Assembly: GCA_028534125.1 (NCBI GenBank)
Contig: CM052816.1
Span: 81,346,001 to 81,410,000 of the forward strand
DNA from: Lama glama
Taxonomy: Eukaryota
Reading direction: 5' to 3'
DNA length: 64,000 nucleotides
In this document: positions 4,552-64,000 of the stretch, piece after piece
Numbering within the stretch: the stretch's first letter is position 1
Layout: each line of letters starts with the position of its first letter
Translations under genes and position numbers: made by a program
The notes under the pieces: model-generated
Database searches by the model: none
What the model was told of the DNA's origin: nothing
The model's input: only the letters and a program-made list of their open reading frames with translations

Positions 4552-4696
4552 TTTTTTTTTTTTTCAATTTGCTTTTTCGGGGGAGGAAGTCATTAGGTTT
4601 ACTTGTTTTTTTTTTTAGAGGAGGTACTGGGAATTGAACCCAGGACCTTGTGTATGCTAAGCATGCACTCTACCACTTGAGCTATTCCCTCCCCCC
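4552..4696 (-). mobile_element. tRNA-derived SINE (camelid Vic-1 type)
   Basis: Minus strand reads GGGGAGGGAATAGCTCAAGTGGTAGAG...GGTTCAATTCCC (A and B boxes) with an A-rich tail; imperfect TSD cttgtcac. Confidence 0.88.
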
Positions 4697-21030: not shown

Positions 21031-21145
21031 ATTTGGGGGGGTGATTAGGTTTATTTATTTTTTTTAGAGGAGGTACTGGGGATTGAACCCACAACCTCAT
21101 GCATGCTAAGCATGCATCCTACCATTCGAGCTATACCCTCCCCCC
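21031..21145 (-). mobile_element. tRNA-derived SINE (Vic-1 type)
   Basis: Same family as 4552-4696. Confidence 0.88.
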
Positions 21146-22854: not shown

Positions 22855-23354
22855 NNNNNNNNNNNNNNNNNNNNNNNNNNNNNNNNNNNNNNNNNNNNNN
22901 NNNNNNNNNNNNNNNNNNNNNNNNNNNNNNNNNNNNNNNNNNNNNNNNNNNNNNNNNNNNNNNNNNNNNNNNNNNNNNNNNNNNNNNNNNNNNNNNNNNN
23001 NNNNNNNNNNNNNNNNNNNNNNNNNNNNNNNNNNNNNNNNNNNNNNNNNNNNNNNNNNNNNNNNNNNNNNNNNNNNNNNNNNNNNNNNNNNNNNNNNNNN
23101 NNNNNNNNNNNNNNNNNNNNNNNNNNNNNNNNNNNNNNNNNNNNNNNNNNNNNNNNNNNNNNNNNNNNNNNNNNNNNNNNNNNNNNNNNNNNNNNNNNNN
23201 NNNNNNNNNNNNNNNNNNNNNNNNNNNNNNNNNNNNNNNNNNNNNNNNNNNNNNNNNNNNNNNNNNNNNNNNNNNNNNNNNNNNNNNNNNNNNNNNNNNN
23301 NNNNNNNNNNNNNNNNNNNNNNNNNNNNNNNNNNNNNNNNNNNNNNNNNNNNNN
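22855..23354. other. Assembly gap (500 N)
   Basis: Run of N within intron 5; exon 5-6 frame is intact, so no coding exon is missing. Confidence 0.99.
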
Positions 23355-41624: not shown

Positions 41625-41957
<333 letters not shown>

Positions 41958-42569: not shown

Positions 42570-42812
<243 letters not shown>

Positions 42813-44643: not shown

Positions 44644-44785
44644 GTTATAAGTCCTGAGAAGTATGACATAAAATGTGCTGTTTCTGAAGCGGCAATAATT
44701 TTGAATTCATGTGTGGAACCCAAAATGCAAGTCACTATCACCCTGACATCTCCAATTATTCGAGAAGAGAACATGAGGGAAGGAG
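44644..44785 (+). CDS. ZFR: ZFR exon 15 ([11 protein letters not shown]...[11 protein letters not shown])
   Basis: tatag acceptor, GAG|GTTGGA donor (weak). Confidence 0.94.
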
Positions 44786-46924
44786 GTTGGAAAGCCATTA
44801 CACATTCTACTTTTTATTAGCTTTTTTCCCCCCATTTACCTACTCTTTAAGATGGCATTAAGCCCTAGAAGGCAACATGCTGGCATTACATATGAATTGG
44901 ATAGATTTGACTTATATAGTAACCAGTTCTACCTAAGATCATTTCCCAGATCTTTCATTGTCTTTTTTGTAATGTACTTTTATATAAAATAACTCATGGT
45001 ATTACTGATTTTCTTAATTTTTTTTTCTTTTCTTGCTAACCTCAGATTTCTGGAAAAAAAAGTTCAAAATTGTTAACAGCATAGTTGACCCATGAAAAAA
45101 TTAAAGAAATATTGCCAGTAAGGGGCCACAAATTTAACTTTTAAGAATCTCTTATTCTTGCCTTATGTTAAAAAAAGACAAGAGAATTTCATAAATAAAA
45201 TTGGTTAAATATCCATAACAGCTTAAGAGACATTGACGTGTATGTAATCATGGATTTGGCTTGTCCTGAGGTAATAAATATTTCTAGTTCTCTGAGGTTG
45301 CTCTTTGGTTTGGAGCACTTTCATAAATGCAGAGCATCCTAATGCACATAGATTTGGGCATCTGACCCAGTATTATAGTAGAGATACTGAAAAATAAATG
45401 GTGTCAGCATAGTTAGTAAGTTATAGTACAAGGTTTTTAAACTTACTTCACAATTATAGAATATGAAATCTGCTGGTGCCAGCAATGTTGCTTTAGGGAC
45501 TGTTCTGTAACATTTTCAAAGCTTCAAAAGCTTTTAAGCAAAAAAGCATGGTCAGTGTCTGCCGTATGTTGGTTCTGTTGTTTTATGGGTCAGATAAAAT
45601 TTACTTTGTTTCCTTTCATGTTGTTTTTGTACATCTTGATTTGTTGAGTATAGAATTACAGTCTACACTAATATTTCTTTGTGATAAGGATAGAGGAAAA
45701 GAGAATACTTAAATTAATTTTGTCTCAAATAACATAAGTAGGCTCTCAATTACTGTCCCTTTAAATTTGTTTTTTTACGACAAATCAGGTTTTGTTTTTT
45801 TTTTAATGCACTGGGCTTTCCACAACCCAGGAAAAGAACATTTTTATTAAAAATGTCATCATTGGGAGATGTGTCTAACCTTGCATACTATGTATATATG
45901 CCATATCAGGTCTTGTATGTTGTATAACATCTTAAGAATAAATGAGGTTTATGTAAAGGATCTTTTATATGAGCATGAGTTTCCACTCAAGGTCTGCCCA
46001 TGGATATTGCTGGAAAAACAGCTCCTGAGTCAATCTGGTCAATTTATATGCAGCATATGACTCCTAGGATTTGAAAAAGAAATCTTAGAAATTACGTTAA
46101 AAATAACAGTTGCTGTACCTTTACTATAAAATTATACTCATATAACCATTTAACTTTATTTCAGAGCATATTTTGTCCAATTATATTTAGACTTAATTAA
46201 ATTTGTGTGGTATCAAGTCATGTTATTATGTTGCAAAAGTTTGAAGTTAATAGTATGTATTTGTAGTGGTCTTCAATAACCTATCCCTTCTAAAGGAAAC
46301 AAAATTACATTTTTGTCTGACCCAGATTTGAGTTAGAATTATTATTCTGAATTTCATGTATATTATGGTGAGAGAAATGATGAGTTCAAAATTGAAAGAT
46401 TTTACTTGAAGACACTGAGCTGAAAAGTTGGATGTGCAAAAAATGTAGAAACATTGATAGTGTTCCTTGCTGCAGATATCTGCAGTAAACCATGTCTTTA
46501 GCTTCATTGTGAAGATTGCTGCAGAATAACGGTATGTATTCTCTCTCACTGCAGCTCCGAATGCTCTGTGTCTTAAAATCATTTAAAGCCTATAGCTTGC
46601 TTTGGGGAGTTAGTAAAGGAGTAAGGAAGGCTTTGCCGGAAGAGCACTTGTAAATCATGAGACTGGAGACTTGCTCATGGTTGTCATAGCCTCTTAATGT
46701 GTAATGGTCCTGCTTAATACCAAAAATTATTTAAAGGAGATGATTAAATTGCCCAAATAACTGTTAAACACATGACAGATCTATTTTATGGTACTGTGTT
46801 TGACAGTTAAAACATTAAACGTTTAATTGACTTGAAGCTTGAAATGTTCAAAATGCTCTAACCCTTGCTACAGAATCTCTTCTGCAGCAAGTCAAGTATT
46901 GTGTGTGTTTTTTTCCACCTGTAG

Positions 46925-47014
46925 CTTATCAGGCCCGGTCCAAAGCCTTCTAGCAGAGGGAATTGATTCCTGTCAGGGGTTGCTGCCAAGACATCGGAAG
47001 GATTTTTGACCAAG
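46925..47014 (+). other. Candidate poison (premature-stop) cassette exon of ZFR
   Basis: ttttttccacctgtag acceptor; reading from exon 15 gives AYQARSKAF then TAG at 46951-46953; putative weak donor AAG|GTTTTC; extensive complementarity to the exon 16 region; boundaries uncertain. Confidence 0.6.
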
Positions 47015-49283
47015 GTTTTCAAAAGCTCAGTGTCACATCTGCCATTTGATAAAGGAGGGACTTTGGATACAGAGTCTGGCATTTGTCTTTTGTGTGGCTG
47101 TTTTGTTCGTTTTGTCTTTGTCTCTTCTAGAATTGAGCAGTGTTCACACTAGTTTTTAAATTGTTGGGTGGATTATACATTTTACATAACCGTGTTAATT
47201 TAAATTAATATATTCCCATTAACTTTTAATCATAAAATAGTGTGGACACAGCATGTCTTCTAACTGGTGATTAACCCCTTAAAATTTATGAAATATGTTT
47301 TTGTAGGGTAAGAATTTGCTTTTTTTTCTTTTAATAAATTAACTGATTTTTGTTAACTGGGTACTAGGAAACAAGGATTATTTTAGTACAGTATATCTAA
47401 GGGGTTAATCCACTTGAAATATAAAATGGGTGCAAAAATCCACACTCAGGATTGGACAGAAATTTCCCACTTATAGCTCTTAATTTTTTTTTAATTGCAA
47501 TAGGTGTCTTGGCATCTTTGAATAAATTCTAAAGTTGTGAATGCTTGTGTAGAAAAAGAAATTATTTCTTACATATTGGAGGAAATTAAAACGTTGTGAA
47601 TTAATATTAGAAATTCAGAAACACTTTTTTTAGAAAGAGATTGCACATTGTCACCTATTTGCATTCTAGCTTTAGCAAATGATTAAATTAATAAGGGACA
47701 TGGAAAGTGTTCTTCAGCATGTTCTGTAGCCCTGCTTTGGGGAGTGGTTTTTTGTTGTTTCTTTTTTCTTTTCTTTCTTCTTTAATAATTAGCTGTGCTT
47801 TCCTATGTTCTTTTCCTCTTCTCAGAATAGCCCATTTAGTTCAGTATATTTCTGGATTAAATAGTTGGTCTTGCAGGGTTTGAGATTATTTATTAATTTT
47901 AAAAATTACTGACTTGATAGTTTCTTTTTAGTACCCAGATTCCTCTTTCAGCGTTCATTTTCAGAATGCCACACAGTCTTCTTTGATTATCTGTAAATCT
48001 CCCTTCTAATACGTCTTCTGAAAATCTGTGCCATCTGATTATTTAAGGAGTAAGAACTGAGAATAGAAAGCCCAGACAAGGGATAGAATTCTTCATTGCT
48101 TTTAAAATATGCTTTTTTGTTTGTCATCTACTCAAAATAAGGATGAGTATCTTTTAAGATTTCTGAATGCTCATGTAAAAATGTATTATCAAATTAACTT
48201 GCCAAGAGTTACAATAGTACTCTTAAAATAAAATCATCTTTAATATTTTTTCATCATATATTTCTTCCCTCATATTCATTTGTTATCATCAGTGATTTAT
48301 TAAATTATATTCTAAATGCCCCATAATTTTGGTGCTTTTTGTCTGGAAGACTGTTAAATTTAATAGATTACTTGCCTGGTATATATGCAAATTTGATTAG
48401 CAATTTTTATACATGTGTTTAGATGAATATAAAACTGGCCTCCAACTAATTTTATCAATGTAAACTACTTATCCTGATTTAGGTTCAGATTTTCTTAAAT
48501 TTTATATAGCTTATTTATGTTTTAATACAGTAATCTGATTAAAATTGGTTATAACTGACTTTAAAACTTGAAAGAATCTACATATTTAAAATCAAATCAT
48601 TCTGCTTACTGCATCTTTTCTATTTCTGTACTTACTCTGTTTAACCATGCTAGTTCCTATTGCCCCTTTCTACTTCATTCATTATTTTTCTCCAATTATT
48701 CTTTGAAATACTTTATGGGAATTTGGAATTCTAAAGGGCATTTTGTATTCCATTACAGCTAAAATTCTCTTGTGGAAGAGAAAGCTTTGAACTCTTCAAA
48801 ATGCCTGTTTTTTGGCTCTTTTTTTTTTCTATGATTATTACTGCATTAATCATCCCATATTTATCATTAGTTCTTTGCTATATTAGCTCCAGAATAACCT
48901 ATGATCATTTAAAATACTGAACAGACTCAGTAGGTTATTGTACATTCTCATTTATTAAAGTGGATTTTTGTGTTCCCTCTTGTCTTGTGGTCTCCATGCT
49001 GGTGCACTGTGTCCAGTATTCCTTCCTTTTGATTTTATTTTGGTGGGTAGGGTTTATATTTGCAGAAATTATTTATTACATCTCTAAATTAAAGAGTTTA
49101 ATTCTCCTCTTGATCTTCATATTGGATTATGTAAATTTGTTGAAAATAACTCCCTGGGTACTTTAAAGTGCTGATAAACTCTCAAATGGCTCATGTGACA
49201 CTGATGCTACTTTAAGGAAGTGTCTTGCTTACCTGGTCAAACACCCATTCCTCACTGCATTTTGCCAATTCAATCCATTTTAG

Positions 49284-49381
49284 ATGTAACCTCGGGTATG
49301 GTGAAAGACCCACCGGACGTCTTGGACAGGCAAAAATGCCTTGACGCTCTGGCTGCTCTACGCCACGCTAAGTGGTTCCAG
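49284..49381 (+). CDS. ZFR: ZFR exon 16 ([36 protein letters not shown])
   Basis: tttag acceptor, CAG|GTTCGG donor. Confidence 0.96.
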
Positions 49382-50173
49382 GTTCGGAACATCATTTTAC
49401 TTTTTTCTTGTAGCCTTATGAGAGAGTAGTTCAGTACAACATGTTTAACTGTGTTTAAACATTTCAAAAGATTGCCCAAGCAATACTATTTAAATTAAAT
49501 ATCAGAAAATATGTTGACATAGAAAGCTGGGTATAAAGATCTGCATATTGCAGTTACTATTAATTTGATGATAAACTCAGGTTTGGGGGGTGTTTTGTAG
49601 TTCGGGTTTTTTTATTTTTATTTTTAGTGACTATATTTAAAGTTGACTTGTTTAGGAACATCACATGTTTTTGTATATATATTATATTCCATAAGGCTGC
49701 AGATAAACTTTGCTTTAAATAATGAAATATGTGTTTAAAGCTTTCTGTATAGTTTTAAGATTTTTCCCCCCTCTTTCTCTAAGTTAATAAGTGTAGGGAA
49801 TGAAAGGTGAGGAAGCAGCTGTTTGGTTTAGTGACTTTGCAGTCATGCAAAGGCACAGAAGGGAAACCAAACAGATTTCCTTAACCTTTCAGTCCCTAGA
49901 CAAACTTTTTAGCTCTTTACTTTTTCTTTTATTTCTGATGTAGGCAGACTTTTTTTTAAGTTTACTGTTTTGAATGAACACAGGTCAAGGTTCACAGGGG
50001 ATCAAGAACAATTATTCTTGTATAATCTGTTTACTTTGACCTAAAATATCAGCTTTTAAATACTAACCTTGGTATAAAATATTGCTGTAAATGGCAGCTC
50101 ATTGAATCCAATTTTAACTGTGGTTATTTTGTTTTATTTTTATCTGAGCTTCCATTGAACAGTGGTATTTTAA

Positions 50174-50353
<180 letters not shown>

Positions 50354-50693
50354 TAACTGAACAGTGTGAAAAATAAACATTAAGGAAATATTTCTGCAGC
50401 TTTCTTATAGCCTCATCTTGCATTTAGTTATCAACTTCATTTTCATTTCCTAAACATAGTTTCTTTCCTCTTCTAGTGAAGCACTGGGGGGGTCTTAGAG
50501 TGTTTTAATTTTCTGAGACTTGCACTCGGTCTTCTTTTTGTATTTTTCTCTCCCCCAGCCCTTTTTTTTTTTAAACTCTTCTCACAATATTTATTACTTT
50601 AAAAAAAATAGGTACAATTATACATAAAGGTACAAAGAAAACTAAAAATAATTACTAATCTCCCTATGTAAGTTTTTTTTTTGACTTTTTTAA

Positions 50694-50789
50694 TTAATTT
50701 ATTTTTTTTTTTATTTTTTTAGAGAGTTAGAGAATTCAGGTTTATTACGCCAATAGGCCCAGAGGAGTTAACACTCCAAGCTCTGAACC
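50694..50789 (-). mobile_element. Retroposed polyadenylated fragment resembling an ERV LTR R region
   Basis: Minus strand: ...CTTGGAGTGTTAACTCCTCTGGGCC...AATAAA, 20 nt, then poly(A); TSD GACTTTTTT(T)AA. Confidence 0.65.
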
Positions 50790-51862
50790 GACTTTTTTTA
50801 AAATGTATAAGTTTAGGAATTTTAAAAATTCAGAAATATACATTCAAAAATGCATAAGTTTAGAAAATTCAAATAATGCAAAAAGGCAAAAAATAAGAAA
50901 CAAAAGCCTTCTTATTTAAAGGCAAGTTGTCTTGACGCAGTTTATGATTTCTTCCAGGAACAGAAATGCATGTGTATGCATCATGTATGTTCCTGTTTTT
51001 CATTTATGTACAAATATCTCTTTGATGTTGAGTTACTTGGTTCCTAAATAGCAAGAATTCAGATAGAGAGGGATTCATTCAAAAATATAACTGAACCTAC
51101 TGATTCTAGAGTTGGGTTAGGGAGAGTTAAATAGCCAGGGTTGTCTAATTCTTTTTTTTAACACAGGAGTGTGTCATGCTGTTTACTCTGACATGATATT
51201 TTCTTCTTTGTTACGTTAGACATATCAATCTTCTCTTAGTTTACTAAGTAATTTTGAATCAGGAATGGAAATAGAACTTTATCAGATAATTTTGCAAGGT
51301 TTATTGATGTGAATGTATAGTATTTCTTCAAACTGTTGCATTTTGTGATTGCGTTTTTCTTAATAAAATACATCTTGGAGTGTTTGGAGAGCTGCATTAA
51401 CTACGAGGTGTTCCCTTTGTATGGATATGCCGTATTTTATTTAAATGGTGTCCATTTAATGGACATTTGGGTTGTTTGCAGTCTTTTGCTCACACATGCC
51501 TTTTTCTAGAGTTTTTTTCCCCCTAGTCAAATTATATTTTCTGCAAATGTGTGTATATACATGTTTATTTTTAATATATAGCAAAGTTCCTGGAAGGATA
51601 TATCCCAACTTAAAACAGTGGTTGTCTCTGAGGAGTGAAAGGAAGAGATGGTTAGGTTAGAGATCTGTAATGTTTGGGTTTTAGTAGAATAAAATATACA
51701 TATATTACTTGTATAATTAGAAATAGATTTAAAAATCATAAATGGGCTAAAGATGGATCCAGTATATGTTTTTCCAGATCAGTTGCCAATTAATACCATT
51801 TTATTTAGTAGTGATATTTGTTCTCCCAACCCCCAGTTTGAAATGTCACCATTATCATAAAC

Positions 51863-51942
51863 CAGTGATTCTCAACCAGTGTCAGTTTTGCCCTTCAGGG
51901 ACATTTGGCGGTGTTTGAAGATATTTTCAGTTGTCAAAACTG
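51863..51942. mobile_element. Partial MER20, opposite orientation to 17633-17853
   Basis: cagtgattctcaacc...cagggacatttggc...ttgtcaaaactg. Confidence 0.7.
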
Positions 51943-54618
51943 TTCATCAGTAGCTCCAAGAATGAGAAACACTGTAATAATCCAAAGTTCCTTTTTTTGT
52001 GAGCCTGTTTCTACAGTCTTCATTCCTCAGTCTTTGTTCTTCTCTAGTGCTAAAACTCTTAATTATTAAAACTTCATAGTGTGTTTCAAAATGCTGATTG
52101 TCCTCTTCATCACATTTCTCCCTTTCCATTCTGTGCCACTCACTATAAACATGATGTTACAGCGAAGAATTTTGTTTGGATTTTCTTGTATGTTTCTTTT
52201 TCAAGTTAAATGAACTTGATAACCATTTTGTTCAGTTTCTCTAAAGTTCTCTTGATGATTTTTAAGTAGTACATTGAATTAATAGATAATTTGTGGACTG
52301 TCATCACTTGTATAATACTGACTCTTTAGCTAAGAGTATAGGATATCCTATTTATTGGAATTAATTTTATGTGCTTATTTAGGTTTGAATAGGTTCTGTT
52401 TTGTTTATGTTTTGTTGATGATAGTTTGTACCTAAGTATGTATCTTTCAGAGTTTTTTAAATTCCATTTTCTGGTTATTATTTATATATAGTAAATACAT
52501 TAAATTTTGTAGCCCACCACCTGACTTCATTCCTTTATTTGTACCAGTTTTTTTCATGTGATTCTTCTGGGTTTTCTAGTCTTAGAGCCACATCTGCAAA
52601 TGATATTTTGCCTCCTTTCCAATATTTTGCCTTCTTTCTCTTCTCTAATTTAATTGATTCTTCTACAATAAATGTATAATAAAAGAAACAATACTTTACA
52701 TGCGTGTTATATTCTGCCTGCATTGAAATTACTTCTAGTATGTAAAGTATATTAAGTATGGTGGGTAAAAGCCTTTTATTTGAGGTATTTACTTCTTTGT
52801 AATATTAGAAGTATCATTCTTCTCTTAGTTACTAAGTTTAGACCAGAAATGAAAATTGAATTTTATCAGATAATTTTTCAAGGTTTATTGACATGAGTAT
52901 ATAGTTTTCCTTCAACCTGTTTATACTCTACATTTACAAATAGATTTCCTCATATTGAGCTACCTTTCATTCTAGAGATGATTCTCATATATATAAGGAT
53001 AATCTTAATGAACTGGTAGTCTATTTAGGAATTTTGCAGTGACGTAAAACAAATTTTTGTAGTTTTATTTTTGTCCTCTGTGAATCAATAGCGTGTGTAC
53101 TTTGTAAAAATAATTTTGAAGCTTTATTTCTCTAAACTCTGAAACCATTTTTAGTAACATCAAAACTATCTGTTTTTTGATAATTTATTAAATTCATGTA
53201 ACATCATCAGTTCCCAGTCCCTTTTAAAGGGGGTAGCTCTTTCTCAGTTTCTTTTATTGTGATTAATTGTTTGTTTAATTTTTCTTTCCCCTGGGATTGA
53301 TTTTGGCAACTTATCTTTTCCCAGAAAAATCAACCAATTCAGCCAGATACTTAGATTTTTATTTAATACAAGTTTTGCTCTCTTAGGGTCTTTTAAATAC
53401 CCACTTTTTTTGCTTTTAATTCTTTAATTGATTGAATAAACTAGCCAATAATAGCAGTTGCCATATAGGAGCAAAATGACATAGGGGTGTTTCAGTATTT
53501 ATTTATGATCAGAGTTCACTGAATTATTAATAGGTTTTAAATGTAAAAATTTATGGATGTTATATAACTTTAAATTTTTAAAGTGTATAAAAATATAAGC
53601 ATTGTACACTATTATTCTACTTCCTTCTTCCTTCAACTTCAGTCCCTTCAGCCGAGGTGCCCTGTTGTAGTAAGTGTAAGCATCAGTGCTTTTTTGAGAA
53701 TGGACTCTCAGGCCACTGCTGGCAAATCTTGGAGTCTGGAGATCCAGCAATGCAGATGGCCTTGCTCTGCCCTGTACCTTACATTTCCTCTTTATCAGAG
53801 AGAGCCATCAACTTCAAGGGGCACTCTCCTTTGAGGGTGCAGAACTCTAAGAACTGAGTGGAAAAGAGGAAGATGTACAGGTAAAAGGAATTGGAGGAGC
53901 ATGGGCCATAGCAGGGTAATGATGGGAGAATCAAGGAGGGCAAAGCTGCTGGCCAGTCTTTGAAATCATGTACATGTAACATAAAATACACCAGTATTTT
54001 GGTAGCTTAAAGCACACCAAAATGTCAGTTTTTTGACATCTAAAAATCTCTGTTAGTATTTTATTCTTTAGTCAGTGGTTTATTTCATCTCCTCCCAACC
54101 CCTCCTGCCAAGAGCCAGCTCCTTGGATTTAGCTACCAGATCTATTAACTTTATATTTTCATTGGGTTTATTTTCGTTCTTTTAGAAACGTCTTGAATTG
54201 TATACTTGTTTCATTCACTCTTTAATTATATAGAGATTTTAAAGCTGTAATTTAAGGCTGGACACAGGTTTTTGGCTATATATGTAGTATTTCCTCTTTA
54301 TTTTCTGCACAATCTGAAACTCATTTTAATGTTATCTTTAAGCCAAGAGTAGTTTTGAGGGAATCTTTAAATTCTACATGACTGGAGAAGGGTTGCTTTT
54401 GTTTTTGTAAATAACTTCTAGTTTTTGTAGCATGTAATCCAATAAATATATTCCACTACTTGTAATTTTTGGAATTTAAAGTTTTCTTTGTGGTTTAATA
54501 TGTACAACTAAAACTATGAGCAAAATATGTTCTCAACAAGGTACGTGTATATATAGCATGTAATATATACCTCTTCAACTTCATCCTTTTGTTCATATCT
54601 CCCATTTCCTTTTCTTTA

Positions 54619-57600
54619 ACTTTTTTTAATTGTTATTGTCATTTTACAATGTTGTGTCAAATTCCAGTGTAGAGAAAATTTTTTCAGTTATACGTGAACA
54701 TACATACATTCATTGTCACATTCTCTTTTGCTCTGAGCCACCATAAGATCCTGTGTATATTTCCCTGTGCTACACAGTACAATCTTGTTTATCTATTCTA
54801 CATTTTGAAATTCCATTTCCACCCACCACCCCCCCCGGTCCCCCTGGCAACCACAAGTTTGTATTCTATGTCTATGAGTCTGTTTCTGTTTTGTATTTAT
54901 GGTTTTTTGTTTTTTGTGTTTTAGATTCTGCATATGAGCGATCTCATATGGTATTTTTCTTTTCTTTCTGGCTGACTTCACTTAGAATGACATTCTCCAG
55001 TAACATCCATGTTGCTGCAAATGGCGTTACGTTGTCGGTTTTTATGGCTGAATACTATTCCATTGTATAAATATACCACTTCTTCTTTATCCAGTCATCT
55101 GTTGATGGACATTTAGGCTGTTTCCATGTCTTGGCTATTGTAAATAGTGCTGCTATGAACATCAGGGTGCAGGTGTCATCCTGAAGTAGGGTTCTTCTGG
55201 ATATATGCCCAGGAGCAGGATTCCTGGGTCATATGGTAAGTATTCCTAGTCTTTTGAGGAATCTCCATACTGTTTTCCACAGTGGCTGCACCAGACTGCA
55301 TTCCCACCAGCAGTGTAGGAGGATTTCCTTTTCTCCACAGCCTCTCCAGCATTTGTCGTTTGTGGACTTTTGAATGATGGCCATTCTGACTGGTGTGAGG
55401 TGATACCTCATTGTAGTTTTAACTTGCATTTCTCTGATAATTAGTGATACTGAGCATTTTGTCTTGTGCCTATTGATCATTTGTATTTCTTCCTTGCATA
55501 ATTGCTTGTTTAGGTCTTCTGCCCATTTTTGTATTGGGTTTATTTTTTTCTTATTATGTCGTATGAGCTGCTTATATATTCTGGAGATCAAGGCTTTGTC
55601 AGTTTCATTTGCAAAACTTTTCTCCCATTCTGTAGATTGTCTTTTTGTTTTACTTCTGGTTTCCTTTGCTGTGCAGAAGCTTGTAAGTTTAATTAGGTCC
55701 CATTTGTTTATTCCTGCTTTTATTTCTATTTCTTGGGTAGACTGCCCTAGGAGAACATTTTTGAGATGTATGTCAGGTAATGTTTTACCTATATTTTCTT
55801 CTAGGAGGTTTATTGTATCTTGTCTCATGTTTAAGTTTTTGATCCATTTTGAGTTGATTTTTGTGTATGATGTAAGGGAGTGTTCTAGCTTCATTGATTT
55901 ACATGCTACTGTCCAGTTTCCCCAACACCATTTGCTGAAGAGACTGTCTTTATTCCACTGTATATTCTTGCCTCCTTTGTCGAAGATTAGTTGACCAAAA
56001 GTTTGTGGGTTCATTTCTGGGCTCTCTGTTCTGTTCCATTGGTCCATATGTCTGTTTTTGTACCAATACCATGCTGTCTTGATGACTGTAGTATTGTCTG
56101 AAGTCTGGGAGAGTTATTCCTCCAGCCTCTTTCTTTCTCTTCAGTAATGCTTTGGCAATTCTAGGTCTTTTGTGGTTCCATATAAATTTTATTATGATTT
56201 TGTTCTAGTTCTATGAAATATGTCCTGGGTTATTTGATAAGGATTGCATTAAATCTATAGATTGCCTTGGGCAGTATGACCATTTTAACAATATTGGTTC
56301 TTCCAATCCAGGAGCATGGGATATCTTTCCATTTTTTTAAGTCTTCTTTAATTTCCTTAATCAGTGTTTTATAGTTTTCCGTGTATAAGTCTTCCACCTC
56401 CTTAGTTAGATTTATTCCTAGGTATTTTATTACTTTGGGTGCTATTTTAAAGGGAATTGTTTCTTTACCTTCTTTTTCTGTTGATTCATTGTTAGTGTAA
56501 AGAAATGCAACTGATTTTTGAACGTTAGTCTTGTAACCTGCTACCTTGCTGAATTCTTCAATTATTTCTAGTAGTTTTTGTCTGGACCTTTTAGGGTTTT
56601 CTAGTATCATGCCATCTGCATATAGTGACACTTTTACCTCTTCTTTTCCGGTTTGGATCCCTTTTATTTCTGTCTCTTGCCTGACTGCTGTGGCTAGGAC
56701 TTCCAAGACTATGTTGAATAGGAGTGGTGATAGTGGGCAGCCTTGTCTTGTCCCAGATTTTAGTGGGAAGCTTTTGAGTTTTTCACCGTTGAGTACTATG
56801 CTGGCTGTAGGTTTGTCATATATAGCTTTTATTATGTTGAGATATGTTCCTTCTGTACCCACTTTGATGAGAGTTTTTATCATAAATGGGTGTTGAATTT
56901 TATCAGAAGCTTTTTCTGCATCTATTGAGATGATCATGTGGTTTTTGTCCTTTCTCTTGTTGATGTGATGTACACTTTGATTTGCATATATTGAATCATC
57001 CTTGTGTCCCTGGGATGAACCCCACTTGATCATGATGTATAATCTTTTTTATGTGCTGTTGGATTCTATTTGCTGGTATTTTGGTAAGGATTTTTGCATC
57101 TCTGTTCATCAGTGATAATGGTCTGTACTTCTCTTTTTTGGTGGTGTCTTTGCCTGGTTTTGGTATCAGGGTGATGGTAGTTTCATAGAATGAGTTTGGG
57201 AGTACTCCCTCTTTTTCAGTCCTCTGGAAGAGTTTGAGGACTGGTATGAGTTCTTTGTATGTTTGGTAGAATTCCCCAGTGAAGCCGTCCGGTCCTGGAC
57301 TTTTATTTGTAGGGAGGTTTTTAATTGCTATTTCTATTTCATTTCTAGTGATCGGTTTGTTCAAGTGGTCAGTTTCTTCTTGATTCAGTCTTGGTGGACT
57401 GTATGTTTCTAGAAACTTGTCCATCTCCTCTAGGTTATCCATTTTGGTTCCATATAGTTTTTCATAATACTCTCATATGATATTCTGTATTTCTATGTTA
57501 TTTGTTGTGATTTCTCCATTTTCCTTTCTTATTTTGCTTATTTGTGCTGTCTCTTTTTTCTTCTTCATGAGTTTGGCCAGAGGTTTGTCGATTTTATTTA

Positions 57601-59383
57601 CTCTTTCAGAATTCCAGCTTTTGGCTTGATTGATTTTTTTCTATTGTTTTTTAAACCNNNNNNNNNNNNNNNNNNNNNNNNNNNNNNNNNNNNNNNNNNN
57701 NNNNNNNNNNNNNNNNNNNNNNNNNNNNNNNNNNNNNNNNNNNNNNNNNNNNNNNNNTTTTCTATTGTTTTTTAAACCTCTATTTTATTTCCTCCCTGAT
57801 GTTTATTATTTCCTTCCTTCTGCTGACTTTTGAGTGTTTTTGCTCTTTTTCTAGTTCTTTTAGCTGGTGGGTTAGATTGTTTATTTGAGATTGTTCTTCT
57901 TTTTTTGAGAAAGGCCTGTATCGCTATAAACCTCCCTCTTAGCACTGCCTTTGGTGCATCCCATAAGTTTTGTGTGGTTGTGTTTTCATTTTCATTTGTC
58001 TCAAGATATTTTTTAATTTCAACTTTGATTTCATCATTGACCCATTGGTTTTTTTTAATAGCATGTTTAATCTCCATGCTTTCCTTTTTTTCTCCTTTTG
58101 TTTCTCTGTAGTTGATTTCTAGTTTCATGGCATTGTGGTCAGTAAATATGCTTGAGGTACTTCTTATCTTCTTAAAATTGTTGAGGCTTTTTTTGTGCCC
58201 GAGTACATGATCAATCCTAGAAAATGTTCCATGTGCACTTGAAAAGAATGTATATCCTATTTTGGGGGGGTGTAATGCTCTGAAAATATCCACCAAATCT
58301 AATTTTTCTATTGTATCATTTAATTTCTCTGTTGTCTTATTTTCTGTCTGGAAGATCTATCTAGTGATGTTAATGTGATGTTAAAATCTCCAACAATGAT
58401 TGTATTCCCATCAATTTCCCCTTTATCTCTGTTAGTAGTTGTTTTATGTACTTAGGTGCTCCTATATTGGGTGCATATATATTGATTGTAATATCCTCAT
58501 CATGTATTATTCCTTTAATCATTATAAAATGTCCTTCTTTATCTTTCTTTATGGCCCTTGTTTTAAAATCTGTTTTGTCTGAAATCAGTACTGCTACACC
58601 TGCTTTTTTGGCTTTTCCATTTGCATGGAATATCTCTTTCCATCCTTTCACTCTCAATCTATATGTGTCCTTCTCCCTAAAGTGGGTCTCTTGTGTGCAG
58701 CATATTGAAGGTTCTTGCTTTATTATCCAGTCTGCCACTCTGTGTCTTTTGACTGGAGCATTTAGTCCTTTAACATTTACAGTAATTAATGATAGATGAG
58801 TGTTTATTGCCATTTTGAACTTACTATTTCAGTTGATTTGGTATTTCCTCTTTGTTCCTTTCTTTTTCTTTTTGTGGTTTGGTAATTTTCCTTTGTATTA
58901 TCTTGAATTTTATTTAATTTTTGTGACTCACTTGTAAGTTTTTGGCTTGTGATTCCCTATTTTGTAAGTCTATTAACCTGTTACTATAACTGTTTGTACT
59001 AAACAGATAGTAATATAATCTCAAACCATCCTACTGAGAACAAAAAATTTAAAAAAGAAAGAAAAAAAATACTCTATTTTCTTGCTTCCCTCTCATGCTC
59101 TTAATGATTCAGATGTCTTCTTTTACAATTTTTTGTTTATTCTACTTGGAATTCATGGTAGTTATCACCTTCCAGTTATGAGTTTCTCATTTTTGTAGCA
59201 TCCTGCTTCTTTTCTATTTATAGTAGACCTGTCAATATTTCTTTTAGCATGGGTTTAGTGTTGCTAAACTCTTTTAGTTTTTGCTTGTCTGTGAAGTTAT
59301 TTATCTCTCCTTCTATTCTAAAGGATAGCCTTGCTGGATAGAGTGTCCTAGGCTGCATCTTTTTTTCATTCAGGACTTTGAAT
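54619..59383 (-). mobile_element. 5'-truncated LINE-1 (end of ORF1 region, frameshifted ORF2 EN/RT/C-terminus, 3'UTR)
   Basis: ORFs 58813-58370 and 58296-57772 (endonuclease), 57442-56996, 57033-56230 ([19 protein letters not shown] in place of YADD), 56047-55229 (HCWWEC); TSD TCCCATTTCCTTT(T)CTTTA at 54600-54618 and 59384-59401. Confidence 0.97.
57658..57757. other. Assembly gap (100 N), probably a false gap
   Basis: TTTTCTATTGTTTTTTAAACC is repeated on both sides. Confidence 0.95.
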
Positions 59384-59649
59384 TCCCATTTCCTTTCTTT
59401 ACATATGTTTTGTCTACTTCATCTGTCCATGAACTGACAAAGATGAATTAAATAAAATCTATTTCTGTTGTGTTTTCTACAGTTAGTGCTTTACTGTTTT
59501 GTTGCAGTAATGTTTTGGACATAAATACTTAGTATAGTTATGTTATTGTGAATTTAAACCCTGTGTCATTGTAAAGGGCATTTAATTAACATTTCTGCCA
59601 TTAGTTAACATCTTGCCCATTTCTTAGTATCAAAACTCTAGCTTTTTTT

Positions 59650-59925
59650 AAAAAAATTAAAACTAACATACAATATTTCTTTCAGGTATACATAGAATGT
59701 TTCTTTCTTGTACACCTGAAAAGATTTTACAATTCAGTATTTTTATACATTATGAAATGGTTATTGCAATAAGACCAGTTGCCATCTTTTACCATATGAA
59801 GTTATTACAATATTATTTACTATGTTCCCCTGTGTGCACTTAGATCCCTATGAGTTATTTGTCTTTTAGCTAGAAGTTTATACCTCTAAATCCCTTTCAC
59901 TTATTTCATCTGGACCCCCACCCTC
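59650..59925 (-). mobile_element. L1MA-like 3' end fragment
   Basis: gttattacaatattatttactatgttcccc...gctagaagtttatacctctaaatccc. Confidence 0.65.
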
Positions 59926-62441
59926 CTAAAATATGGCTTTTTTTGTTAGCATTTGTCTGATACAATTCTGTTTGTTTCCTTTATTTTCTTCTGTCCTTTA
60001 CCGTAATTCTTATCCTTTTCTTGTTCTTTGTTGTGTGTGTGTGTGTTTCTTCTGGTTATTTAGATAATTGGTGTTGCCCTTATAGTTTGATGTAGTATTT
60101 GCATTCATCTATTTCTTTAATAATTTGAGATAACATCTATTAACCTGTCATCTATAAAAGCTGAGAAAATTACCACTTCCTTCCTCCGCCCCAATCCTGT
60201 TTTGAGATTTTTGTTATATTTTCTTTTGTTTCATTCATTTCTTTAAGTAATGTATTTAAACCTGTTTCTTAATTTATCTGTCTTACTCAGTATATGCTGA
60301 TTCTACTGAAGACAAGGAAATTTACACCTAATGCTTTTTTTTAAACTTTAAAAGTGTAAAAATAACTATACTTACCTTCTCTAGTCATATCCCTTTGGTT
60401 GTTTAATATTTTGTATTTAAAATGGTTCATTGCCAACTAGCAGGTCTTTTTCTGGAGATGCTTCTTTTCATTTTTTGATTGCGTTTTATCATCAAATAGT
60501 TTTTAATCAAAATGTGTTGTAAGTTTTTTAAAATTTCTTTCATGTTTGAAAATCTTTGCCAATTACCATTATTTATTTGAGAAAATACGTTGTAAGTTCC
60601 TCCATTTATTGGTGGTGTTCCATTATTTTCTAGCATTGAGTATTACTAAATCTAAGTCCAGCCTAATATTTTGCCTTTACTTTTTCTACAGGCTGCTAAA
60701 AGAATTCTTTCTTTAATCTTGAATTTCAGTAACTTAGCCAAATTATGTCTTGGAATCTGTTATTTAATAACAGCATTTCATTGAAATTTATGTCCTTTTG
60801 TCCTACAGATTCAATTTTTCTTTCAGTTGGGGGGGAAGCAGTCTCCTGTTATATCTGGTTAATATGATTCTCTATTTTCAGGGACACCAATTCTTCTATT
60901 GGATTGCCTTTGTCCTACACGTCTGTTATGTTTGTGATTATTTTCATCTTTGTTCTAATTTCTCATGTGTCTCTTTGACAGTAGCTTAGTCTTCAGCTAT
61001 ATCCTAGTCTTCTCTGCTATTTATGGCTCATTTATTTGTTCTATAATAATGTTATTTTACATTTCAGTTTTCTTTATTAGTTTTGTGGTCTTCCTTTTCA
61101 TCTCAACTTTGAGCTCTTAATTTTATTGGCTTTTTGTATTTATCAAGTGCTCTTATAACTCAGAACATTAGGGGATATTCATTCCCTTAAATTAAGACTC
61201 TTTCAGAGTAAATTTTTTTAATAGACATTATTTTTTAAAGCAGTTGTTGGTTTGCAGCAAAATTGAGCAGGAAGTACAGAGTTCTCATATACTTTGCCCC
61301 TACACATGCATAGCCTCCCCCCCAACATTCTGCACTAGAGCTACACATTTGTTATACACAATAACAAATTGTCAAAGTCCACAGAGAATAGAGTTTTCAT
61401 TTCTATTTTTCATGCTGTGTTCTACCCAAATGTGAAGGTGTCATGTCTGGTTTTAATTTTTTTCATCTCGTTAGTGCTTAGCATTGTAGTTTCATTGCAG
61501 AATCATCCTTCTATGCTGAGACATCCAAATAAGATTTGTCCTTGAATTTGTCCACACCTTTTTAAATATCTTTTCTTTTTCTTCCTCCATCAGCTCTGCT
61601 TTGAGGATTATTTATGAAAAAGAGTAGGGTTTGGCTGTGTGCAGCCTTATTACAGACATGGGCTTTCTCTCTCCTAGTCCTGATTGAGTGTGCCGTCACA
61701 GTCTGTGAAGGAGGATTCCATTGGCATACCTTCAGGCTTCAGGTTGCAAATGCAGATTGGGCTCACAGAGCCTTTGCTTATGCAGAAACTGCTGTTTCCT
61801 GAGCCTATTCACTATCTCCTTTCAAGAACAGCTTCTGTTTCCCTGACCTAACAGAGGGTATTGGGTATGTAAAGCCACTTTGGGACACCTGTGTTTAGAG
61901 TTCACAGCCATCTATGATATTAATTTTTCCCTACCTATTACTCTTTTGGATGACCTTACCTTACTTATTTTTTCTTTTATCTACATGTTAATCAAATGCC
62001 TATTTTATTATTAGAGATAATTAGATATGGATAATTACTATTCTTCTGCTCTTCCTTCCTTGTCTTCCACAAAGAGTTTTCAAGATGGTAAGTTCTATTA
62101 ATTTTTCCTTTCTCTGGTTGGATGGAAAGTGGTCAGAAGAGGATCTTACGGTTAGAAAATTTTTTCGCTAAACTAATCCCTTCCTCATTCATTTATTAGA
62201 GAGCCAAATTAGGAGCAACAGAAATGTTCTCTCTTTCATTGGCCTTTTATACTGTTTAGTTGAAGCTGTTATTTTTTTTTTTTGCTTGGGTGGCATTAAT
62301 GTGCATCATTACATATTTCTTAATCATAATCAGGTTTTGGGGTTAAGAGATCTTGAGATTTGGCTTTGTGCTATCACCTTAAGCAGAGAATAACTTTTCT
62401 TCTTGATTTTCGTAAAAGAAATTTGAAATTCTTATGAACTT

Positions 62442-62580
62442 AATTTTTTTAATTTATTTATTTTTTGTGGGAGGAGGTAATTAGATCTATTTATTTACTT
62501 TAATGGAGGAATTAGAGATTGAACCCAGGACCTTGTACATGCTAAGCAAGCACTCTGCCACTGAGCTATACCTCCCCCCC
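62442..62580 (-). mobile_element. tRNA-derived SINE (Vic-1 type)
   Basis: Same family; TSD TTCT(T/A)ATGAACTT. Confidence 0.88.
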
Positions 62581-62934
62581 TTCTAATGAACTTTATTAAT
62601 CTTCCAATTTATTTAGTATTCAGATTACTTAACTTGAACAAGTCTTCAGTAACACCAGCATGTAGGCTTTTCCTTTACCACTGCAGTAAGTGCTGCTAAT
62701 GATACTCTGCATTCAAATTAGTTCTGCTTTTGTCCTAAATCTGTGGTGATGAAGTAAAGAAAATAGAGGTTAAAATCTCTTGTAAGATTGGTTTGACATC
62801 AGAATTGCTGATGTAGAGTCTACACTTCCTTTAGAATGGTATACCTTCTATAAATTACAAAAAGGCATATAGTTAATTTTTTAATGTTTATTATATAGTT
62901 TATTTCTAAACAGTGTATATTAGGCTGAGGAATA

Positions 62935-63298
62935 TTTTATGAAAGAGAATGATCTATTATTATAGCCAGGATGAACCTCTAAAACATTATGCTAATTTAA
63001 GGAAGCCAGACACAAAATGTCATGCATTATATGATTACATTTGTATGAAATATCCAGAATAGACAAATCCATACAAACAGAGTGTACATTGGTGGTTGCT
63101 AGAGACTTAGGGGAAGGAGGGACTGAGGAAATGAGGAGAAACGTTTAATGGGCCAGGGGGTTTATTTTGGAGTAATAGAAATGTTTTGAACTAGATCTAG
63201 GTGGTGGTATACAACATAGTAAATATACTAAATGCACTGGATTGTTTAGCTTTAAAATAGTTATTTTATGTGCATTTTATCTCACTTAAAAAAAAATC
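62935..63298 (+). mobile_element. L1MB-like 3' end
   Basis: ggatgaacctctaaaacattatgctaa...gaagccagacacaaaa...ggtggttgctag, ending in an A tail. Confidence 0.75.
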
Positions 63299-64000
63299 AA
63301 ATGTGAGGAGAAAAATCCCCAAAAAAGAGGCTGACAAAACTGCCATAAATGTATATAAGTGTATTCTGCGCAAATATCAGTTAAAATATATGATTCAGCA
63401 TTTCTTTCCACATACTTTATGGATTTTTCAGGAGTATAAGTAAATTAGATTTTAGTGATGGTGGCTTGTAGTAAGAGAGCTCCTGTCAGTTTTAGAGGTT
63501 TTAAATGATAGGACACAGACATCACAGGGCAAAGAACTAACATTCTTTTAGCTTGCAAAAGAATTAGCAGATTATATTTGAACTGTATCATTTCACTCAT
63601 TTAGCTCAAAGATGATAACTTAGCACTTAGCTGTTCCATAACAAAAACCATGTACTGAAGTACATAAATACCCTCAAATCACCAGAAGCTGTGAGTAAAC
63701 TTTTTTTAAAGAAGACATGACAGTTTTTATTAAGAATTGATGAGTATGAAGCATTCAAATATAATTACAAAAATGTAACATCCTACTCATGGGCTTAGGA
63801 ATGAGAAGTCTATCATGCACATAAAGATTAAAATTGGTTAGTATATGTAAAGGCTTAGAACAGTGCTTAGTATATATAATAAACAGTCAGTAAGTTAGCT
63901 GTAATTGTAAAGAGGATAACTGCAACTATTACAGTTAGTTAGCCAGACTTCCCGGTGTTAGGTATTTAGATTGTTTCCAGCCCATTAACAGACAAACAGC

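Follow-up and report, generated by a model that had tools for sequence, protein, structure and literature searches.

The 64,000-nucleotide stretch of the Lama glama genome analyzed here (the window: contig CM052816.1 of assembly GCA_028534125.1, positions 81,346,001 to 81,410,000 of the forward strand) carries on its plus strand the mammalian ZFR gene, whose coding parts comprise zinc-finger exons and DZF-domain exons (Pfam; ILF3 structures). Here we describe a strip of ZFR intron 15 whose predicted pairing partners are four boxes lying some 2 kb downstream, the last of them within exon 16; together they would form a long-range RNA duplex. We placed exons 13-17 at 41682-41887, 42581-42731, 44644-44785, 49284-49381 and 50246-50341 (all features below are on the plus strand unless stated). 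Because these exons sum to 693 nt, the length published for circZFR exons 13-17 in the accessible part of PMC7846991, the exon numbering is fixed, and the number 16 used in an initial annotation of this DNA is correct. The accessible part of PMC12558639 gives a conflicting 1032 nt for the same exons; the window is in line with 693. Exon 15, of 142 nt, ends in phase 1 and has a weak donor. Exon 16 (98 nt) belongs to the DZF domain, and if it is skipped, exon 17 opens with a stop. A motif search of 50342-64000 found no further ZFR exons.

We folded 46800-49420 as a single strand (the global fold) and also folded the arms in five further settings. The folds give one colinear structure, in which an unbroken upstream arm, the contiguous strip 46986-47082, is predicted to pair with boxes at 48996-49029, 49182-49208, 49231-49251 and, in exon 16, 49316-49325, with about 70 high-probability intronic pairs. 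Between the boxes of the downstream arm, about 152, 22 and 64 nt are looped out; the exon 16 branch point and acceptor lie in the 64-nt loop-out. All helices except the exonic one have probabilities of 0.9-1.0 in the global fold and recur in five of five arm choices. Helix H1, which the initial annotation did not include, joins 47051-47082 to 48996-49029 (boundaries from the global fold) through 29 pairs, six of them G·U, at -36.6 kcal/mol. H2 joins 47024-47049 to 49182-49208 through 24 Watson-Crick pairs (-37.5 kcal/mol), and H3 joins 46996-47016 to 49231-49251 through 16 Watson-Crick pairs (-20.0 kcal/mol). The H3 downstream box abuts a branch-point-like motif (A at 49254), and it pairs at 47012-47016 with the donor of a candidate poison exon, which the H3 upstream strand covers. 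The core of H4 (46986-46995 with 49316-49325) is predicted at a probability of 0.29-0.8 depending on context, with a possible extension pairing 46972-46985 with 49327-49345. Its diagonal continuation matches at 11 of 17 positions (p = 0.0005), a value that counts if H4 is real; we discounted a recoding test of the extended H4 (0.2% as good), since a box chosen for its best score beats its own recodings by construction. We rejected a fifth helix, in which 46896-46921 would pair with the donor region of exon 16 (p = 0.21-0.24, unstable to window choice). Just downstream of the strip, a further predicted helix joins 47092-47119 to 47417-47445 (24 pairs, four G·U). The H3 downstream box resembles the 5' end of U1 small nuclear RNA at 49228-49236, and could mask donors.

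With boxes chosen after folding, the H1 and H2 partners ranked first among 3155 and 3156 window tiles, respectively, and a single tile was better in each case for H3 and H4. Untuned shuffles gave p = 0.001 for H1 (0.005 against the whole intervening intron) and 0.005-0.01 for H3, while H2 reached p = 0.0005 in one scoring and 0.003-0.01 in two others. H1 is strongly strand-asymmetric: its energy of -36.6 kcal/mol in the sense orientation compares with -22.8 kcal/mol in antisense, a loss of about 14, and its six G·U pairs are accompanied by no A·C mismatch. If an inverted copy decayed neutrally, both kinds of mismatch should remain, so G·U without A·C would be a trace of selection on RNA pairing, and the base-pair bias of H1 appears to point to such selection. 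The initial annotation had named co-evolution of the arms as one possible origin of their similarity, and co-evolution as an RNA duplex is supported.

The downstream arm coincides with an ultraconserved element (UCE). In the supplement of PMC4991481, uc.151 is listed at hg19 chr5:32380137-32380350, in ZFR, and rows for uc.151 in hg18 coordinates in the supplement of PMC4207606 likewise name ZFR; one preprint labels uc.151 HOXC10, at odds with these two supplements in the portions available. By distance from the exon 17 donor, and assuming a human intron 16 of similar length, uc.151 maps approximately to 49212-49425, covering exon 16 and its flanks and taking in H3 and H4. Judged from this mapping, uc.151 appears to be the downstream arm, and the range marked in the initial annotation (46858-47082) appears to be another conserved element, some 2.2 kb upstream of it; the boundaries of that range are the ATG-to-stop span of an antisense frame, nothing more.

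Conservation was gauged from gene-caller translations in other assemblies. These spurious translations of vertebrate contigs serve as a conservation proxy for a non-coding element, and may help with other eukaryotic windows; they are peptides of single arms in which third positions are hidden. We obtained nine homologues for the upstream arm and two for the downstream arm. One protein search returned 12 matches, of which four were previously known and P0014 was kept; the counts leave out six long proteins, and P0016 was dropped as a repeat protein. Among the nine upstream homologues, only 1 of 79 codon comparisons differs over 46987-47013, versus 17/150 upstream and 8/74 downstream of it, and this sole change converts a C-G pair with the exon to U·G, keeping the pairing. 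Over 46987-46995, which has no intronic partner, 1 of 27 comparisons differs, and the exon pair is kept. H1 shows five distinct inferred changes, three of which keep pairing, with one at an unpaired site and one breaking the helix end. Over 49211-49426, 70 of 72 codons are identical in the downstream homologue P0007, whose H2 downstream box carries four inferred changes, three at unpaired sites (an internal loop, a bulge and the unpaired edge) and a fourth that turns U-A into U·G (p = 0.016). P0007 implies A to G at 49193, in a U-A pair that flanks the 2x2 loop of H2, which may be a species difference, or an A-to-I edit if the underlying sequence is RNA-derived. Protein searches of other assemblies found no homologue of the H1 downstream box, and no homologue of the antisense frame of the downstream arm was found. 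Orthologous DNA with both arms was not found in a metagenome pattern scan, genome contigs or viral contigs; the three matches of the pattern scan (21-22 nt) and the single match from the genome contigs (16 residues, in a bacterium) were all rejected as chance. As peptides of single arms, the homologues would support conservation and not covariation. The two arms are complementary and colinear and appear to be conserved, and the duplex is very probably real and selected.

The segment 46996-47012 of the H3 upstream strand can take either of two partners, intronic 49234-49251 or exonic 49299-49315. The initial annotation had noticed these alternatives through three octamers, whose positions are correct: TTTGACCA at 47005-47012, TGGTCAAA at 49234-49241 and TGGTGAAA at 49299-49306. 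The two partners form a direct repeat 65 nt apart, 49234-49247 versus 49299-49312, with 12 of 14 positions identical (p = 0.018). Both of the exclusive registers that the initial annotation proposed are possible, but they are far from equal: fold probabilities in free RNA are 0.99-1.0 for the intronic register and 0.002-0.006 for the exonic one. The exonic register is predicted to reach 0.98 when the whole intronic box is blocked, and it takes such blocking, or mimics of editing, to make the two comparable in stability, as is expected of competing structures. The wobble bases of the exon show no tuning to the exonic register, with 20/27 matches versus 19.0 +/- 1.3 in 5000 synonymous recodings (maximum 25; 33% as good). 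We consider the exonic register a fallback, probably an older pairing that the intronic box displaced. On the simplest reading, the 3' end of this older exon pairing is still in use, and the intronic box has taken the place of its 5' part; the idea that competing structures can stem from partial duplication has been published (PMC10789245, accessible text).

How the strip came to resemble exon 16 bears on several rival explanations. The initial annotation proposed an inverted copy of exon 16 and its upstream intron, from a minus-strand frame that resembles the exon. We confirmed that this frame reads LVKNPSDVLA opposite 10 exon 16 residues and reproduced the accompanying DNA alignment, in which the reverse complement of 46986-47012 matches 49299-49325, spanning the second register and the H4 core, at 20/27 positions without gaps. 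Three scorings, with 2000 dinucleotide shuffles each, gave p = 0.013, 0.033 and 0.019, and 30, 118 and 56 of 2566 window tiles scored at least as high; an exon-side alignment gave p = 0.001-0.011, with its ends chosen after the match was seen. That the match is chance, and the intronic helices H1-H3 alone are real, is a doubtful option with some footing: the p values are modest for a match picked out post hoc by eye, it is equaled by 1-5% of window tiles, and H4 scores p = 0.07-0.11. Set against chance, this is the only ungapped match of at least 20/27 that exon 16 has in the window on either strand (nine tested exons have 40 in all), it lies at the colinear place, and 46987-46995, which has no intronic partner, is nearly unchanged among homologues. 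On balance the match is probably non-random. Its significance ends with those 27 nt: the remainder of the exon, donor included, is not significantly similar to the strip (p = 0.08-0.73), and opposite 49205-49298, the 94 nt with the branch point and acceptor, the strip has only 14 nt. "Inverted copy of exon plus intron" is therefore too strong a description. An ancient inverted duplication of that extent, since decayed to an antisense exon with its boxes frozen by pairing while the exon drifted synonymously, is unlikely, although it would account for several features. Five of the seven mismatches fall at codon third positions (p = 0.023), with first and second positions matching at 16 of 18; the peptide score of 32 is beaten by only 3 of 826 overlapping tiles, all over exon 14; the order is colinear, H2-H4 are strand-symmetric, and the alignment resumes with six more matches beyond an in-frame 12-nt gap. 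However, the same third-position skew occurs in 4 of the 40 comparable matches, the exon 16 match included, the antisense peptide has no Pfam match at E up to 10, and continuous similarity that includes a splice site, as a duplication should leave, is not seen outside the 27 nt. A single inverted duplication would also require the three gaps in the downstream arm, and it sits poorly with a partner in four boxes, an acceptor region without counterpart and a helix H1 that is G·U-biased and strand-asymmetric.

The mismatches of the exon match comprise three A·C and one G·U and, with their third-position excess, resemble what neutral divergence would leave, in contrast to H1 with its six G·U and no A·C. 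The A·C mismatches, which the initial annotation had suggested as possible ADAR targets, are present at 46993, 46998 and 47002, and could in principle drive a two-state switch in which editing of A opposite C turns the intronic into the exonic register. A-to-G mimics at all three positions raise the exonic register to 0.23, or to 0.82 with the branch region blocked, and editing is enriched in stable conserved pairs of less than -30 kcal/mol according to the accessible text of PMC8052449. We nevertheless regard such a switch as improbable: the pairing of inosine is overstated by the G mimic, the dominant register has 46998 in an A-U pair, an edit at 47002 alone stabilizes the intronic register, no single edit lifts the exonic register above 0.07, and exon wobble bases are not tuned to it. 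Least credible of all is that the antisense 74-codon frame encodes a real peptide. The frame is open for 96 codons from stop to stop and gene callers report it in other assemblies, but the homologues shift frame at either end of the conserved block, have no start in common, and carry neither a name nor a Pfam family.

The strip overlaps a candidate poison exon. A pyrimidine tract and AG at 46902-46924 form a candidate acceptor, comparable with real acceptors, for an exon starting at 46925 (a second AG would give 46933). This acceptor marks the edge of the conserved block, where the homologues' antisense translations contain purine-rich K/E codons, and the antisense frame shifts there in two close homologues, as expected of a non-coding exon. 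The candidate exon, 46925-47014 with an uncertain 3' end, has stops in all three frames (46951, 46964 and 47007). Its donor is paired within H3 in the global fold, and a stronger donor follows 47307. T at +3 sets the donors of exon 15 (after 44785), of the candidate exon (after 47014) and of exon 16 (after 49381) apart from the other nine real donors. Upstream lies a second candidate unproductive exon, 46476-46531, with a strong donor after 46531 and possible lengths of 56, 46 or 30 nt, all with stops; a near-perfect 22-nt palindrome (46467-46488) extends over two AG sites. Ni et al. 2007 reportedly list Zfr among stop-codon exons. We found no ZFR event in the available supplements of PMC11632617 and, searched by coordinate prefixes, of PMC5861047.

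We propose, with a probability of roughly 0.6, that the strip and its four boxes form a long-range RNA duplex that is likely kept by selection for pairing and likely acts as a splicing latch for ZFR self-regulation. In this model, H1 and H2 (53 pairs) would loop out about 1.9 kb and bring the candidate donor next to the exon 16 acceptor. H3 would close over the candidate donor and also over the sequence that flanks the exon 16 branch point on its 5' side, and the H4 core would extend the duplex into the exon. ZFR-ILF2, which binds double-stranded RNA (dsRNA), may stabilize the H1/H2 scaffold. Spliceosomal factors could then open H3, upon which the freed strand would slide onto the exon in the second register, exposing donor and acceptor side by side; the stop-carrying exon would be included and the mRNA directed to nonsense-mediated decay (NMD). 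The poison exon, editing, the ZFR feedback and the sign of the effect are inferred. [quoted passage not shown]

That the duplex is tied to unproductive splicing is probable, and about half of this confidence goes to poison inclusion, as opposed to exon 16 skipping, as the direction of the effect. We favor the feedback latch, with exon 16 skipping nearly as likely. In that tentative alternative, the duplex is the same and the outcome is reversed: pairing would conceal the branch point of exon 16 together with part of the exon, and ZFR binding would promote skipping of 98 nt with a frameshift while masking the cryptic exon upstream. H3 pairs 49245-49251, adjoining the branch-point-like A at 49254, an immediate stop results from skipping, the UCE maps to exon 16, and the exon 16 acceptor and donor are both modest. 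Skipping leaves unexplained the acceptor-like motif at the edge of the conserved block in homologues. Several observations weigh against the latch. The donor after 47014 is the weakest tested, matching U1 at 5 of 11 positions where 11 real donors match at 6-9, and ZFR is reported to favor NMD-insensitive isoforms of other UCE genes, opposite in sign to the proposed feedback (bioRxiv 2022.06.15.495552, accessible text). Blocking the branch region alone lifts the exonic register only to 0.05-0.09. H2, H3 and H4 lack strand asymmetry, and therefore do not discriminate between selection and a frozen copy; H4 alone is non-significant, with a probability of no more than 0.29 in the global fold. The homologues are related single-arm peptides, which do not amount to true two-arm covariation, and they were found by shared words, which favors apparent conservation. 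Distant homologues lack H1, and two of them alter a paired H2 position (47030 or 47031).

The duplex can be compared with several known systems, each as described in the accessible parts of its source. PCCRs are defined by a length of at least 10 nt, an energy of at most -15 kcal/mol and intronic arms in the same gene less than 10 kb apart (PMC8052449). H1, H2 and H3 have such lengths and energies, and their arms lie in intron 15 about 2.0-2.2 kb apart; the exonic H4 would not qualify. Like PCCRs, the ZFR duplex consists of apparently conserved intronic boxes, with H1 and H2 in the most stable class (below -30 kcal/mol); unlike them, a single ZFR strip pairs with four boxes, one of which lies in a coding exon, outside an intron-only catalog. 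The name "ZFR" is absent from five of the eight supplementary files of PMC8052449; the large catalog files lay outside the search and may list H1-H3. The BRD2/BRD3 poison exons likewise show conserved long-range pairing tied to unproductive splicing (Petrova 2024, PMC10789245). There the paired elements sit in the introns flanking the poison exon, whereas in ZFR one arm is formed by the candidate poison exon with its own donor, and the branch-point flank of the next exon belongs to the partner. In Dscam and ATE1, a docking site and selectors form competing structures, for which partial duplication of complementary sequence is a possible origin (PMC10789245; Haque 2022). The ZFR strand similarly has two alternative partners that form a short direct repeat (12/14), but ZFR has no mutually exclusive exons, and the second partner is coding, 65 nt away and predicted to be less than 1% populated. 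As in the ultraconserved exons of splicing regulators that couple alternative splicing to NMD, a UCE, uc.151, maps to exon 16 and its flanks (PMC4991481, PMC4207606); unlike in those, the ZFR strip lies about 2.2 kb upstream, outside the listed UCE. Our literature search, which left most subscription papers outside its reach, found no description of a ZFR duplex or of pairing that links the strip to uc.151, and the PCCR catalog may list the duplex.

The rest of the window holds several further features. Its SINEs look camelid, and an antisense stretch near 54700-59000 is presumably LINE-like from its appearance. Weak tRNA matches at 4619-4691, 21068-21140 and 62504-62575 were rejected as tRNA genes, being the heads of tRNA-derived SINEs. 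Gaps of N occur at 22855-23354 and 57658-57757. Intron 16 contains a mir-1898 family hairpin at 49982-50042 (Rfam, E = 7e-17), 600 nt from exon 16, and an Rfam scan at the gathering threshold placed no family over either duplex arm. The duplex element falls within exons 13-17, from which circZFR derives.

The ZFR element is very probably an unusually long conserved duplex, for which the history as a relic of exon 16 is partly supported and the switch is unproven. In a more speculative and improbable version, the intronic strand was once an inverted copy of part of the coding exon and continues to slide by branch migration between the exon and a near-repeat in the intron, 65 nt apart, with ZFR binding and A-to-I editing setting the register and so switching the poison exon. 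This version would explain the ultraconservation of uc.151, including its frozen synonymous sites, and would make the third-position mismatches a fossil of ancestral vertebrate codons. Why ultraconserved elements are so intolerant of change is a long-standing question, and here uc.151 gains a concrete, mutable partner 2 kb upstream. As this partner lies in the pre-mRNA of a dsRNA-binding regulator of splicing and editing, a structure-based feedback loop becomes directly testable.

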